The notes beneath the pieces were generated by a model. That model had not been told where the DNA came from. It saw only the letters and a list, made by a program, of their open reading frames with translations, and ran no database searches. From Enterobacteria phage MED1: a stretch of DNA of 5,386 bases. The position numbers were made by a program, and so were the translations under genes. Below are positions 984-5,386 of this stretch, one piece after another (position 1 is the first letter of the stretch; the number at the start of each line of letters is the position of its first letter). Location of the stretch: the sequence record KJ997912.1. One strand, written 5' to 3'.

Positions 984-1000
984 TTACTTGAGGATAAATT

Positions 1001-2284
1001 ATGTCTAATGTTCAAACTGGCGCACAACGTATGCCGCATGACCTTTCCCATCTTGGCTTCCTTGCTGGTCAGATTGGTCGTCTTATTACCATTTCAACTA
1101 CTCCGGTTATCGCTGGCGACTCCTTCGAAATGGACGTCGTGGGCGCTCTTCGTCTTTCTCCATTGCGTCGTGGCCTTGCTATTGACTCTACTGTAGACAT
1201 TTTTACTTTTTATGTCCCTCATCGTCATGTTTATGGTGAGCAGTGGATTAAGTTTATGAAGGATGGCGTTAAAGCCGCTCCGCTCCCGACCGTTAACACT
1301 ACTGGTAATATTGACCATGCCGCTTTTCTTGGCACGATTAACCCTGATACCAATAAAATTCCTAAGCATTTGTTTCAGGGTTATCTGAATATCTATAACA
1401 ACTATTTTAAAGCGCCGTGGATGCCTGACCGTACCGAGGCTAACCCCAATCAGCTTAATGAAGATGATGCTCGCTATGGTTTCCGTTGCTGCCATCTTAA
1501 AAACATTTGGACTGCTCCGCTTCCTCCTGAGAGTGAGCTTTCTCGCCAAATGACGACTTCTACCACGTCCATTGACATTATGGGTCTGCAAGCTGCTTAT
1601 GCTAATTTGCATACTGACCAAGAACGTGATTACTTCATGCAGCGTTATCGTGATGTTATTTCTTCATTTGGAGGCAAAACTTCTTATGACGCTGACAACC
1701 GTCCTTTACTTGTCATGCGCTCTAATTTCTGGGCATCTGGCTATGATGTTGATGGAACTGACCAAACGTCGTTAGGCCAGTTTTCTGGTCGTGTTCAACA
1801 GACCTATAAGCATTCTGTGCCGCGTTTCTTTGTTCCTGAGCACGGCACTATGTTTACTCTCGCGCTGGTTCGTTTCCCGCCTACGGCGACTAAAGAGATT
1901 CAGTACTTGAATGCTAAAGGTGCTTTGACTTATACCGATATTGCTGGCGACCCTGCTTTGTATGGTAACTTGCCGCCGCGTGAAATTTCTATGAAGGATG
2001 TTTTTCGTTCTGGTGATTCTTCTAAGAAGTTTAAGATTGCCGAGGGTCAATGGTATCGTTATGCGCCTTCTTATGTTTCACCTGCATATCACCTGCTTGA
2101 AGGCTTCCCATTTATTCAGGAACCGCCTTCCGGTGATTTGCAAGAACGCGTACTTATTCGCCATCATGACTATGACCAGTGTTTCCAGTCCGTTCAGTTG
2201 TTGCAGTGGAATAGTCAGGTTAAATTTAATGTGACCGTTTATCGCAATCTGCCGACCACTCGCGATTCAATCATGACTTCGTGA
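1001..2284 (+). CDS. F: Major capsid protein F (427 aa)
   Basis: ORF 1001..2284 with GAGG 7 nt upstream; translation MSN.QTGA.RMPHDLSHLGFLAGQIGRLITISTTPVIAGDSFEMD... is near-identical to phiX174 F with scattered substitutions. Confidence 0.97.
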   Translation: MSNVQTGAQRMPHDLSHLGFLAGQIGRLITISTTPVIAGDSFEMDVVGALRLSPLRRGLAIDSTVDIFTFYVPHRHVYGEQWIKFMKDGVKAAPLPTVNTTGNIDHAAFLGTINPDTNKIPKHLFQGYLNIYNNYFKAPWMPDRTEANPNQLNEDDARYGFRCCHLKNIWTAPLPPESELSRQMTTSTTSIDIMGLQAAYANLHTDQERDYFMQRYRDVISSFGGKTSYDADNRPLLVMRSNFWASGYDVDGTDQTSLGQFSGRVQQTYKHSVPRFFVPEHGTMFTLALVRFPPTATKEIQYLNAKGALTYTDIAGDPALYGNLPPREISMKDVFRSGDSSKKFKIAEGQWYRYAPSYVSPAYHLLEGFPFIQEPPSGDLQERVLIRHHDYDQCFQSVQLLQWNSQVKFNVTVYRNLPTTRDSIMTS

Positions 2285-2315
2285 TAAAAGATTAAGTGTG
2301 AGGTTATAACGCCGA

Positions 2316-2343
2316 AGCGGTAAAAATTTTAATTTTTGCCGCT
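2316..2343 (+). terminator. F-G intergenic long hairpin (terminator TF; core of the PriA / n-prime primosome assembly site used for complementary-strand synthesis)
   Basis: AGCGGTAAAAATT (2316-2328) pairs with AATTTTTGCCGCT (2331-2343), with one G-U wobble; smaller GC hairpins flank it (CCG-AAG-CGG at 2312-2320, GCG-AAG-CGC at about 2359-2367). The F-G intergenic region of phiX174 is the known n-prime recognition site. Confidence 0.5.
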
Positions 2344-2394
2344 GAGGGGTTGACCAAGCGAAGCGCGGTAGGTTTTCTGCTTAGGAGTTTAATC

Positions 2395-2922
2395 ATGTTT
2401 CAGACTTTTATTTCTCGCCATAATTCAAACTTTTTTTCTGATAAGCTGGATCTCCGTTCTGTTACTCCAGCTTCTTCAGCACCTGTTTTACAGACACCTA
2501 AAGCTACATCGTCAACGTTATATTTTAATGAGTTGATGGTTAACGCTGGTAATGGTGGTTTTCTTCATTGCATTCAGATGGACACATCTGTCAACGCCGC
2601 TAATCAGGTTGTTTCTGTTGGTGCTGATATTGCTTTTGATGTCGACCCTAAATTTTTTGCCTGTTTGGTTCGCTTTGAGTCTTCTTCGGTTCCGACTACC
2701 CTCCCGACTGCTTATGATGTTTATCCTTTGGATGGTCGCCATGATGGTGGTTATTATACTGTTAAGGATTGCGTGACTATTGACGTTCTTCCCCGTACGC
2801 CGGGCAATAATGTTTATGTTGGTTTCATGGTTTGGTCTAACTTTACCGGTACTAAATGCCGCGGATTGGTTTCGCTGAATCAGGTTATTAAAGAGATTAT
2901 TTGTCTCCAGCCACTTAAGTGA
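2395..2922 (+). CDS. G: Major spike protein G (175 aa)
   Basis: ATG 2395 with AGGAG at 2383-2387; the ORF track's 2350 start is an in-frame upstream extension without an RBS; translation [18 protein letters not shown]... matches phiX174 G with a few substitutions. Confidence 0.95.
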
Positions 2923-2930
2923 GGTGATTT

Positions 2931-3917
2931 ATGTTTGGTGCTATTGCTGGCGGTATTGCTTCCGCTCTTGCTGGCGGCGCCATGTCTAAATTGTTTGGAG
3001 GCGGTCAAAAAGCCGCCTCCGGTGGCATTCAAGGTGATGTGCTTGCTACCGATAACAATACTGTAGGCATGGGTGACGCTGGTATTAAATCTGCCATTCA
3101 AGGCTCTAATGTTCCTAACCCTGATGAGGCCGCCCCTAATTTTGTTTCTGGTGCTATGGCTAAAGCTGGTAAAGGGCTTCTTGAAGGTACGTTGCAGGCT
3201 GGCACTTCTGCCGTTTCTGATAAGTTTCTTGATTTGGTTGGACTTGGTGGCAAGTCTGCCGCTGATAAAGGAAAGGATACTCGTGATTATCTTGCTGCTG
3301 CATTTCCTGAGCTTAACGCTTGGGAGCGTGCTGGTGCTGGTGCTTCCTCTGCTGGTATGGTTGACGCCGGATTTGAGAATCAAAAAGAGCTTACTAAAAT
3401 GCAACTGGACAATCAGAAAGAGATTGCCGAGATGCAAAATGAAACTCAAAAGGAGATTGCTGGCATTCAGTCGGCGACTTCCCGTCAGAATACGAAAGAC
3501 CAAGTATATGCACAAAATGAGATGCTTGCTTATCAACAAAAGGAGTCTACTGCTCGCGTTGCGTCTATTATGGAAAACACCAATCTTTCCAAGCAACAGC
3601 AGGTTTCTGAGATTATGCGCCAGATGCTTATACAGGCTCAAACGGCTGGCCAGTATTTTACTAACGACCAAATCAAAGAGATGACTCGCAAGGTTAGCGC
3701 TGAAGTTGACTTGGTTCATCAACAGACGCAGAATCAGCGGTATGGTTCTTCTCATATTGGTGCTACTGCTAAGGATATTTCTAATGTCGTCACTGATGCT
3801 GCTTCTGGTGTGGTTGATATTTTTCATGGTATTGATAAAGCTGTTGCCGACACTTGGAACAATTTCTGGAAAGACGGTAAAGCTGATGGCATTGGCTCTA
3901 ATTTGTCTAGGAAGTAA
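2931..3917 (+). CDS. H: Minor spike / DNA pilot protein H (328 aa)
   Basis: ORF 2931..3917; RBS GAGGTGA at 2921-2927 overlaps the G stop; Gly-rich N-terminus ([25 protein letters not shown]) and Q/E/K-rich central coiled-coil region typical of phiX174 H. Confidence 0.95.
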
Positions 3918-3926
3918 CCGTCAGGA

Positions 3927-3955
3927 TTGACACCTTTCTAATTGTGTGATTTCAT
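3927..3955 (+). promoter_or_regulatory. Candidate promoter pA in the H-A intergenic region
   Basis: -35 TTGACA at 3927-3932; TG at 3947-3948 followed by a weak -10 TTTCAT at 3950-3955 (extended -10 arrangement, 17-bp spacer). Position agrees with the known pA of phiX174; exact start site not determinable from sequence. Confidence 0.45.
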
Positions 3956-3980
3956 GCCTCCAAACTTTGGAGGCTTTTTT
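3956..3980 (+). terminator. Rho-independent terminator TH: GCCTCCAAA/TTTGGAGGC hairpin followed by a T6 run, immediately before the A start codon
   Basis: Inverted repeat 3956-3964 / 3966-3974, then TTTTTT at 3975-3980; the 3-prime arm contains GGAGG (3969-3973), which also serves as the Shine-Dalgarno sequence of gene A (ATG 3981). Confidence 0.6.
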
Positions 3981-5386
3981 ATGGTTCGTTCGTATTACCC
4001 TTCTGAATGTCACGCTGATTATTTTGACTTTGAGCGTATCGAGGCTCTTAAACCTGCTATCGAGGCCTGTGGCATTTCTACTCTTTCCCAATCTCCGATG
4101 CTTGCCTTCCATAAGCAGATGGATAACCGCATCAAGCTCCTTGAAGAGATTTTGTCATTTCGTATGCAGGGCGTTGAGTTCGATAATGGTGATATGTATG
4201 TCGACGGTCATAAGGCTGCTTCTGATGTTCGTGATGAGTTTGTGTCTGTTACTGAAAAGTTAATGGATGAATTGGCACAATGTTACAACGTGCTCCCCCA
4301 ACTTGATATTAATAACACTATAGACCACCGCCCCGAAGGGGACGAAAAATGGTTTTTAGAGAACGAGAAGACGGTTACGCAGTTTTGCCGTAAGCTGGCT
4401 GCTGAACGCCCTCTTAAGGATATTCGAGATGAGTATAATTACCCCAAAAAGAAAGGTATTAAGGATGAGTGTTCAAGATTGTTGGAGGCCTCCACTATGA
4501 AATCGCGTAGAGGCTTTACTATTCAACGTTTGATGAATGCAATGCGTCAGGCTCACGCTGATGGCTGGTTTATCGTTTTTGACACTCTTACGCTGGCTGA
4601 TGACCGCTTAGAGGCGTTTTATGATAATCCCAATGCTTTGCGTGACTATTTTCGTGATATTGGTCGTATGGTTCTTGCTGCCGAGGGTCGTAAAGCTAAT
4701 GACTCACACGCCGACTGCTATCAGTATTTTTGTGTGCCTGAGTATGGTTCAGCTAATGGCCGTCTTCATTTCCATGCGGTGCATTTTATGCGGACACTTC
4801 CTACAGGTAGCGTTGACCCTAATTTTGGTCGTCGGGTACGCAATCGCCGCCAGTTAAATAGCTTGCAAAACACGTGGCCTTATGGTTACAGTATGCCTAT
4901 CGCAGTTCGCTACACGCAGGACGCTTTTTCACGTTCTGGATGGTTGTGGCCTGTTGATGCTAAAGGTGAGCCGCTTAAAGCTACCAGTTACATGGCTGTT
5001 GGCTTCTATGTGGCTAAATACGTTAACAAAAAGTCAGATATGGACCTTGCCGCTAAAGGTCTAGGAGCTAAAGAATGGAACAACTCACTAAAAACCAAGC
5101 TGTCGCTACTTCCCAAGAAATTATTCAGAATCCGAATGAGCCGCAACTTCGGGATGAAAATGCTCACAATGACCAACCTGTCAATGGAATGCTTAATCCA
5201 GCTTACCAAGCTGGGTTACGACGCGACGCCGTTCAACCAGATATTGAAGCAGAACGCAAAAAGAGAGATGAGATTGAGGCTGGCAAAAGTTACTGTAGCC
5301 GACGTTTTGGCGGCGCAACCTGTGACGACAAATCTGCTCAAATTTATGCGCGCTTCGATAAAAATGATTGGCGTGTCCAACCTGCA
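3981..5386 (+). CDS. A: Replication initiator protein A (HUH rolling-circle endonuclease; 513 aa in total), N-terminal about 468 codons; the ORF runs off the window end and finishes at 1..136
   Basis: ATG 3981 preceded by GGAGG; no in-frame stop to position 5386; HUH motif HFHAVH encoded at 4767-4784; catalytic tyrosine pair in VGFYVAKYVNKK (Tyr codons 5007-5009 and 5019-5021, residues 343 and 347). Confidence 0.95.
   Translation, partial: MVRSYYPSECHADYFDFERIEALKPAIEACGISTLSQSPMLAFHKQMDNRIKLLEEILSFRMQGVEFDNGDMYVDGHKAASDVRDEFVSVTEKLMDELAQCYNVLPQLDINNTIDHRPEGDEKWFLENEKTVTQFCRKLAAERPLKDIRDEYNYPKKKGIKDECSRLLEASTMKSRRGFTIQRLMNAMRQAHADGWFIVFDTLTLADDRLEAFYDNPNALRDYFRDIGRMVLAAEGRKANDSHADCYQYFCVPEYGSANGRLHFHAVHFMRTLPTGSVDPNFGRRVRNRRQLNSLQNTWPYGYSMPIAVRYTQDAFSRSGWLWPVDAKGEPLKATSYMAVGFYVAKYVNKKSDMDLAAKGLGAKEWNNSLKTKLSLLPKKLFRIRMSRNFGMKMLTMTNLSMECLIQLTKLGYDATPFNQILKQNAKREMRLRLAKVTVADVLAAQPVTTNLLKFMRASIKMIGVSNL
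4299..4328 (+). other. Viral-strand origin of replication (30-nt A-protein recognition sequence); nick site between G4305 and A4306
   Basis: CAACTTGATATTAATAACACTATAGACCAC at 4299-4328 is the canonical phiX174 ori, located inside gene A at the same coordinates as in the reference. Confidence 0.85.
4497..5386 (+). CDS. A*: A* protein (341 aa in total): internal in-frame translation initiation within gene A; continues to 1..136
   Basis: In-frame ATG at 4497 preceded by GGAGG at 4484-4488 (8-nt spacing); corresponds to the known A* start of phiX174 (MKSRRGF...). Confidence 0.75.
   Translation, partial: MKSRRGFTIQRLMNAMRQAHADGWFIVFDTLTLADDRLEAFYDNPNALRDYFRDIGRMVLAAEGRKANDSHADCYQYFCVPEYGSANGRLHFHAVHFMRTLPTGSVDPNFGRRVRNRRQLNSLQNTWPYGYSMPIAVRYTQDAFSRSGWLWPVDAKGEPLKATSYMAVGFYVAKYVNKKSDMDLAAKGLGAKEWNNSLKTKLSLLPKKLFRIRMSRNFGMKMLTMTNLSMECLIQLTKLGYDATPFNQILKQNAKREMRLRLAKVTVADVLAAQPVTTNLLKFMRASIKMIGVSNL
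4850..4900 (+). promoter_or_regulatory. Approximate location of promoter pB (inside gene A, upstream of B)
   Basis: Weak sigma70-like elements only (TTGCAA at 4863-4868, then TTACAG/TACAGT around 4886-4892); placed mainly from knowledge that pB lies about 190 nt upstream of B in phiX174. Exact hexamers uncertain. Confidence 0.3.
5075..5386 (+). CDS. B: Internal scaffolding protein B (120 aa in total), embedded in gene A in a different frame; continues at 1..51
   Basis: ATG 5075 with AGGAG at 5063-5067; translation MEQLTKNQAVATSQE... with the conserved C-terminus after the wrap; the N-terminal third carries several substitutions versus the reference as recalled. Confidence 0.9.
   Translation, partial: MEQLTKNQAVATSQEIIQNPNEPQLRDENAHNDQPVNGMLNPAYQAGLRRDAVQPDIEAERKKRDEIEAGKSYCSRRFGGATCDDKSAQIYARFDKNDWRVQPA

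Follow-up and report, generated by a model that had tools for sequence, protein, structure and literature searches.

The 110-nt spacer between genes F and G of Enterobacteria phage MED1 carries an element that we take to be the phiX174 primosome assembly site (n'-pas, a PriA-dependent ssi), with a probability of roughly 0.9 as judged from sequence and homology. The window analyzed here is the whole 5386-nt record KJ997912.1, a complete phiX174-like genome in the phiX174 coordinate frame. The assignment draws on the position of the element (on the viral + strand, in the F-G spacer of a gene map identical to that of phiX174), on its homology to phiX174, on a stable and strand-specific ssDNA hairpin, and on compensatory changes in relatives. 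The original prediction that this region represents the PriA (n-prime) recognition site is thereby supported, both by the homology of the spacer (109/110 positions identical to phiX174) and by the phiX174 literature.

In that literature, PriA binds a phiX174 DNA hairpin named the n'-primosome assembly site (PMC8246471), and the phiX174 primosome recognizes a hairpin located immediately upstream of gene G (PMC9865509, citing Shlomai & Kornberg 1980). The legend to Fig. S1 of Logel & Jaschke describes the F-G spacer as forming the primosome assembly site, and the substitution T2305G has been placed within the primosome binding site (PMC3606162). PriA binding, ATPase activation on SSB-coated DNA, and primosome assembly are likewise taken from work on phiX174 (PMC8246471, PMC9865509). 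The element as such is textbook knowledge, the classical phiX174 primosome site and T_F hairpin, with its structured part unchanged. The comparative side-results described below are more useful for the study of how ssDNA replicons recruit host priming.

The F-G spacer and its identity with phiX174

Megablast of the whole genome returns 161 phage records at 100% coverage and 95-99% identity, the closest whole-genome matches being Salmonella phage PJNS001 (96.6%), ID34 and NC1 (both 96.5%), and phiX174 (96.1%). All 11 genes are intact at phiX174 coordinates, with differences that are mostly synonymous; gene D differs from its phiX174 counterpart by 26 synonymous changes over 459 nt and by no amino-acid change. 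Gene F ends with the TGA codon at 2282-2284, and gene G begins with the ATG at 2395. The spacer between them is, as originally claimed, the largest non-coding stretch, followed by the H-A spacer (63 nt), the J-F spacer (36 nt), and the G-H spacer (8 nt). Gene F is closed by tandem in-frame stops, TGA TAA (2282-2287), with the TAA at 2285-2287. The features to which we refer below are the following:

2285-2394, + strand: F-G intergenic spacer, 110 nt, from the F stop to the G start; longest non-coding stretch of the genome
2302-2355, + strand: extended hairpin of the ssDNA fold, with outer helix GGTT (2302-2305)/GACC (2352-2355) and a T2305·G2352 wobble
2308-2351, + strand: 44-nt hairpin, an imperfect inverted repeat; putative primosome assembly site core and, in RNA, the hairpin to which T_F is assigned
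2312-2320, + strand: alternative mini-hairpin CCG-AAG-CGG, overlapping the 5' arm of the main stem
2316-2343, + strand: apical stem-loop of 12 pairs, A2316-T2343 to T2327-A2332, in the minimum-energy ssDNA fold
2348-2371, + strand: conserved 3' flank GGTTGACCAAGCGAAGCGCGGTAG, whose sequence varies less across phages and plasmids than that of any other part
2358-2364, + strand: GCGAAGC mini-hairpin motif, also readable as GCG-AAG-CGC (2358-2366)
2383-2387, + strand: gene G Shine-Dalgarno AGGAG, 7 nt ahead of the ATG at 2395, read from the sequence

Two open reading frames, a 30-aa frame on the - strand (2304-2396) and a TTG-started extension of gene G (from 2350), were dismissed as mechanical ORFs within a structured, conserved non-coding element. 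With a permissive E-value, an Rfam scan covering 2200-2480 yields no RNA family that applies; sub-threshold matches to the Lysine riboswitch (16 bits against a 30-bit cut-off) and to a lncRNA fragment were discarded as chance.

The sole difference between the MED1 and phiX174 (NC_001422) spacers is A2294, a G in phiX174, which lies upstream of every structure; 2295-2394, with all structured parts included, is 100% identical. The homology that the original prediction proposed to check by comparison with phiX174 is thus essentially identity, and the MED1 element shares with the phiX174 n'-pas its genome position, 44-nt hairpin, 3' flank, and strand. Divergence from phiX174 amounts to 1/110 nt in the spacer versus 210/5386 nt in the genome, about four-fold lower, so that a non-coding region is more conserved than the coding average. 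Purifying selection on the F-G spacer is thereby confirmed to be strong, against a divergence of about 4% in the rest of the genome, and the spacer can therefore serve as a positive control for structure-finding scans.

The spacer is 100% identical, A2294 included, to that of the natural isolate ID45, as are the G-H and H-A spacers, with the whole genome being just 95.9% identical to ID45. The same A2294 spacer is present in a metagenome contig (L061) with an overall identity of 96.2%. Relative to PJNS001, MED1 has few differences at 4200-5386 and 1-400, whereas they lie densely at 1000-4200. As far as sequence comparison goes, this identity pattern suggests that MED1 may be a recombinant or belong to an unsampled natural phiX-like lineage. 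The H-A spacer (3918-3980) has seven differences from phiX174 over its 63 nt (3935, 3937, 3939, 3946, 3949, 3965, and 3966), of which those at 3965 and 3966 fall in the H-A terminator stem (3956-3974), where the terminator scan still calls an 8-pair stem-loop.

Hairpin, 3' flank, and covariation

The 44-nt hairpin is built on a conserved AAC/GTT base, above which follow a G2311·G2348 mismatch and a tandem G·A internal loop (2314-2315/2344-2345). The apical stem-loop starts from a GCGG/CCGC clamp of four G-C pairs, continues through a T2321·G2338 wobble into an A/T-rich top, and closes in a TTTA loop (2328-2331). Outside the apical stem, pairs form at 2312-2313/2346-2347, 2308-2310/2349-2351, and 2302-2305/2352-2355. 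Shlomai & Kornberg reportedly mapped the site to a 55-nt fragment with a 44-nt hairpin, a length that matches the 44-nt inverted repeat at 2308-2351. The original prediction of a 13-bp stem at 2316-2343 was right about the stem and wrong about its length: 12 pairs are feasible, one of them a T·G wobble, and a 13th (T2328-A2331) is impossible because the loop would be 2 nt.

Folding of 2285-2394 as ssDNA, which had been proposed as a check, yields a stable fold, and the structure of the 110-nt spacer is beyond chance with both DNA (z = -3.8) and RNA (z = -3.9) parameters. The extended hairpin folds as ssDNA with -13.7 kcal/mol (z = -4.56). The 44-mer at 2308-2351 has a z-score of -4.9, with 0 of 200 shuffles equally stable, and under DNA parameters it ranks first among all 44-nt segments of the genome (-12.6 kcal/mol, compared with a mean of -2.65 and an sd of 1.95). 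The hairpin is also asymmetric between strands, reaching -13.1 kcal/mol (z = -4.93) on the + strand and -8.3 kcal/mol (z = -2.51) on the - strand, where it is weaker because the wobble pairs turn into A·C mismatches on the complement. This asymmetry fits a function in the + sense nucleic acid.

Lab-evolved phiX174 isolates 10F90, 10E90, and 30C90 (L017, L018, and L019) carry the hairpin substitutions C2340T, C2342T, and C2312T, each of which turns a G-C pair into a G·T wobble and weakens the stem, never breaking it.

By distant BLAST, a subgroup of G4-like phages also has this element between genes F and G. Carriers are of the ID18 type (ID18, WA14, and EMCL318) or the ID2 type (ID2, FL68, FL76, ID204, SECphi17, MG1, Lilledu, Lilleput, Lilleto, and lillemer), with PJNS002 as a further lineage. 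The stems of these relatives differ from that of phiX174 through compensating substitutions. Conserved among the phage relatives are the AAC...GTT base, the apex AAATTTTAATTT, and the 3' flank GGTTGA(C/A)CAAGCG(C)AAGCGCG, with the apex being invariant across all microvirus homologs and the plasmid pIGMS31. In the microvirus alignment, 9 of the 19 pairs are compensatory and 94.7% of cells are paired; across phages and plasmids together, compensatory pairs number 13 of 19. None of 500 shuffles matches the observed values, and slid controls are 38-48% paired. A CG insertion in the 5' arm of Lilleto pairs with the CG bulge seen in FL68. The hairpin structure is clearly maintained by selection. For the outer helix (2302-2305/2352-2355), 72% of cells are paired across relatives and no compensatory change is found; this helix is specific to the phiX clade and was rejected as a general conserved feature. 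A 24-nt match to a Ciona-gut Microviridae genome (E = 7e-3) was treated as chance.

Adjacent to the hairpin, the columns of the 3' flank are near-invariant in the phage and the phage-plus-plasmid alignments, and the flank adjoins differing hairpin stems in the plasmids pIGMS31, pEB102, and pCF1807-5. Within it, GCGAAGC, which occurs once in the genome (chance expectation 0.76), fits the exact GC-GNA-GC / GC-GNNA-GC motif that defines the GCGNAGC/GCGNNAGC class of DNA mini-hairpins. It is the exact heptamer of the extraordinarily stable d(GCGAAGC) / d(GCGNNAGC) mini-hairpins described by Hirao and co-workers. Among homologs, it is either invariant or replaced by GCGCAAGC (ID2/FL68 lineage), another listed stable variant. 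Melting temperatures of 76.5 °C and 72 °C are given for d(GCGAAGC) and d(GCGCAAGC), respectively, compared with 39 °C for r(GCGAAAGC), the sole RNA counterpart reported (PMC13037366). The G4, St-1, and alpha3 origins also contain motifs of the GCGNAGC/GCGNNAGC class (PMC13037366).

The upstream candidate CCGAAGCGG (2312-2320) misses the canonical mini-hairpin motif, its register being different; the shared heptamer CGAAGCG occurs twice, at 2313 and 2359. Because CCG-AAG-CGG overlaps the 5' arm of the main stem, it is mutually exclusive with that stem, with which it competes, and is not a flank. It is absent from WA14, FL68, PJNS002, and the plasmid homologs, and hence is not conserved beyond the phiX clade. 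By nearest-neighbor energy alone, neither mini-hairpin is significant (z = -1.6 and -1.1). The flanking GCG-AAG-CGC-type mini-hairpins of the original prediction therefore reduce to the one at 2358-2366, which is canonical and conserved, whereas the other shares bases with the main stem.

In the ID18/WA14 and ID2/FL68 lineages, GCGTTAGC directly follows GCGAAGC or GCGCAAGC (about 452-466 in WA14, L002; 3892-3906 in the ID18-like genome L023), which gives these lineages two tandem mini-hairpin motifs. GCGTTAGC is the mini-hairpin sequence reported for the St-1 and alpha3 origins. In phiX-type spacers, this position is taken by GCGGTAGG, which is unable to close.

That the hairpin is a functionless palindrome, arisen by chance in an A/T-rich spacer, would agree with the observation that both mini-hairpins and the single GCGAAGC are individually within chance expectation. 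Such an origin is vanishingly improbable for the genome's top-ranked hairpin, with its z-score of -4.9, its 9-13 compensatory pairs, and a divergence about four-fold below the genome average in a region that is non-coding.

As a primosome assembly site, the element would act on the infecting viral + strand, where 2308-2351 would fold into a long imperfect hairpin, with the fold reaching 2302-2355 in the phiX clade. SSB would coat the incoming strand except at this hairpin and the adjacent mini-hairpin. The hairpin and its 3' flank (2348-2371), with the very stable GCGAAGC DNA mini-hairpin, could then present a fork-like DNA structure for host PriA to recognize and bind. PriB, DnaT, and DnaB/DnaC would join, and DnaG would subsequently prime the complementary strand. 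We infer both the joint reading of hairpin and 3' motif by PriA and the relative contributions of the two.

Terminator T_F and the RNA-level reading

The region had also been predicted to act as terminator TF. The phiX174 literature indeed places T_F, one of four phiX174 Rho-independent terminators, in the F-G spacer, and a terminator segment predicted in published work (2297-2394) encloses the MED1 hairpin. This part of the claim is supported by homology to phiX174, with the link to this exact hairpin being indirect. The element does provide a stable stem-loop with four G-C pairs at the base of the stem (RNA z = -3.9), but the stem is followed by GAGGGGTTGACC and no U-tract is present 3' of it, and hence the hairpin does not represent a canonical intrinsic terminator. 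Run over the entire genome, a consensus promoter/terminator scan calls the H-A terminator hairpin (3956-3974) and nothing in the F-G spacer. The missing U-tract and the failure of the consensus scan to call the hairpin both fit the measured weakness of T_F in phiX174, where read-through is 0.59-0.80-fold and efficiency is about 20-60%, fitted near 0.5. We infer that T_F and the primosome site are the same hairpin. In the rightward mRNA, the copied hairpin would, in the absence of a U-tract, form a weak T_F and step down expression of G and H relative to F. The transcript drop at T_F may reflect either true termination or 3' protection by the hairpin.

Viral ssDNA and mRNA share their sequence, and a function in DNA is therefore indistinguishable from one in RNA on the basis of covariation or of the tolerated G·T(U) wobbles. 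The hairpin could be kept mainly for an RNA function, as T_F or for 3' exonuclease protection of F mRNA, with primosome function being secondary or located elsewhere in the spacer. Such a role is in keeping with the RNA fold of the spacer (-34.6 kcal/mol, z = -3.9), with the G·U compatibility of all non-Watson-Crick stem positions observed among natural and lab-evolved variants (T2321·G2338 and the variants C2340T, C2342T, and C2312T), and with the transcript-level drop measured in phiX174, where T_F is placed in the spacer. We nevertheless consider it improbable that this is the main function, given a hairpin that has no U-tract and a published primosome site in the hairpin region. Furthermore, hairpin and 3' motif recur in plasmids, in a region described as ssi and outside phage transcription units, and the mini-hairpin is invariantly GCGAAGC or GCGCAAGC, sequences that are very stable as DNA, with the sole reported RNA counterpart, r(GCGAAAGC), being far weaker. 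The plasmid copies and the mini-hairpin both argue for a DNA-level priming role.

Copies in other phages and in plasmids

The Gequatrovirus subgroup has the phiX174-type hairpin and the GGTTGAACAAGCG(C)AAGCGCG motif in a short F-G spacer of 92-101 nt. The phiX-type spacers in G4-like phages were located as follows, with further ones in L023 and L026:

WA14 (L002), 396-487
FL68 (L003), 397-495
PJNS002 (L006), 150-246

The ID18-like L023 and the ID2-like L026 can be aligned to G4 on both sides of the spacer, through the end of gene F and from gene G onward, with an identity of about 82-83% across the aligned coding regions. A G4-type origin was sought in four complete genomes, these two together with L025 and L027 (related metagenome and IMG/VR genomes), and was found nowhere in any of them (E of at least 0.12). 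This suggests that the origin module may have been swapped in this G4-like subgroup and that the phages would be PriA-dependent.

G4 itself (NC_001420) has an F-G spacer of 136 nt with three unrelated hairpins, to which a primer site and the complementary-strand origin are annotated. Like the MED1 element, this origin lies in the F-G spacer and has a mini-hairpin motif, GCGAAAGC, and it serves what would be the same task, priming of the complementary strand on the viral strand; it differs in that DnaG reads its three hairpins directly, without PriA. When the G4 spacer is aligned against the MED1 genome by BLAST, only chance matches result (E of at least 1.4), and the MED1 element shows no similarity to G4 oric hairpins I-III. 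The comparison with G4 that accompanied the original prediction thus points to the same map position and task, with no homology between the two elements. If the MED1 element were nonetheless a G4-type origin, DnaG primase would read the SSB-coated DNA directly without PriA. This would suit the shared map position with the annotated G4 origin and the presence of GCGNAGC/GCGNNAGC-kind motifs in the G4, St-1, and alpha3 origins, but it is very unlikely, both because the longer G4 spacer with its three different hairpins is not detectably similar and because phiX174 is the classical PriA-dependent template.

Independent copies of the element that we assign as the primosome assembly site are also found in plasmids, replicons in which ssDNA or a lagging strand has to be primed, and these copies count in favor of the assignment. 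A pattern scan of metagenomes returns mostly phiX174 spike-in (83 copies), along with three contigs sharing only about 53 nt with MED1. These contigs were matched to pIGMS31-family plasmids, which are 2.5 kb in size, MobV-mobilizable, and derived from Klebsiella, Enterobacter, Pantoea, and Citrobacter, and pIGMS31 itself (pHW126 family) is 88.7% identical to 2320-2372. In a pattern scan of genome contigs, 119 of the 122 matches are phiX174, and one pIGMS31-like and two IncFII-like copies are added. The module is present in Erwinia billingiae pEB102 (IncN-typed), about 325 nt upstream of the replication initiator gene, and in IncFII plasmids such as pCF1807-5. Plasmid modules lie at these positions:

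pIGMS31 (L098), 2094-2160
pEB102 (L100), about 1495-1565
pCF1807-5 (L101), about 378-447

The plasmid hairpins have the AAC...GTT base and the correspondingly placed T·G wobble of MED1 and, as in MED1, are followed by GGTTGACCAAGCGAAGCGCGG; the tandem G·A loop is shared by pIGMS31 and pEB102. The plasmid stems differ from that of MED1 by compensatory changes. In pEB102 and pCF1807-5, loop and stem lengths also differ, and the shared base carries another stem, after which the GCGAAGC-containing 3' motif follows again. The plasmid copies lie in a replication region, in contrast to the phage spacer in MED1.

pIGMS31 replicates by a rolling-circle mechanism (pIGMS31 preprint), and its element has been published as an ssi-like (single-strand initiation) palindrome. 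In plasmids, the ssi-like element is reported to be non-essential, with its loss leading to multimers, and plasmid ssi signals have already been described as resembling the ssi sites of diverse replicons. In PLSDB, the pIGMS31 element sits under a CDS annotated as 'hypothetical protein' (1977-2258), which is probably spurious.

We would give even odds to a broader reading, in which the selected unit is a portable phiX-type ssi cassette exchanged among Sinsheimervirus, some G4-like phages, and enterobacterial plasmids. Such a cassette may consist of a free-sequence hairpin on a fixed AAC...GTT base and of the fixed 3' motif GGTTGA(C/A)CAAGCG(C)AAGCGCG with its DNA mini-hairpin. Its carriers may comprise the ID18/WA14, ID2/FL68/Lille, and PJNS002 lineages, the pIGMS31 family, pEB102, and IncFII plasmids. 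If this were true, the G4-like phages concerned would be PriA-dependent, not primase-only, and the 3' motif, not the hairpin sequence, would be the sequence-specific determinant for primosome proteins. The reading is plausible and only modestly new, because the likeness of plasmid ssi signals to those of diverse replicons had already been described.

The searches also brought up phiX174 itself in many deposited sequences. Sequencing-control DNA of phiX174 has entered databases in the form of 5386-bp 'plasmids' attributed to Vibrio, Cellulomonas, and Edwardsiella, and PLSDB entries of this kind include NZ_AP024892.1, NZ_AP024868.1, NZ_AP026443.1, and NZ_AP028091.1. Contigs of phiX174 are present in about 119 unrelated bacterial and archaeal assemblies (L103-L182), and FUFK010037421.1, a metagenome contig of 328 kb, is made up of phiX174 repeated in tandem, with matches recurring every 5386 nt.
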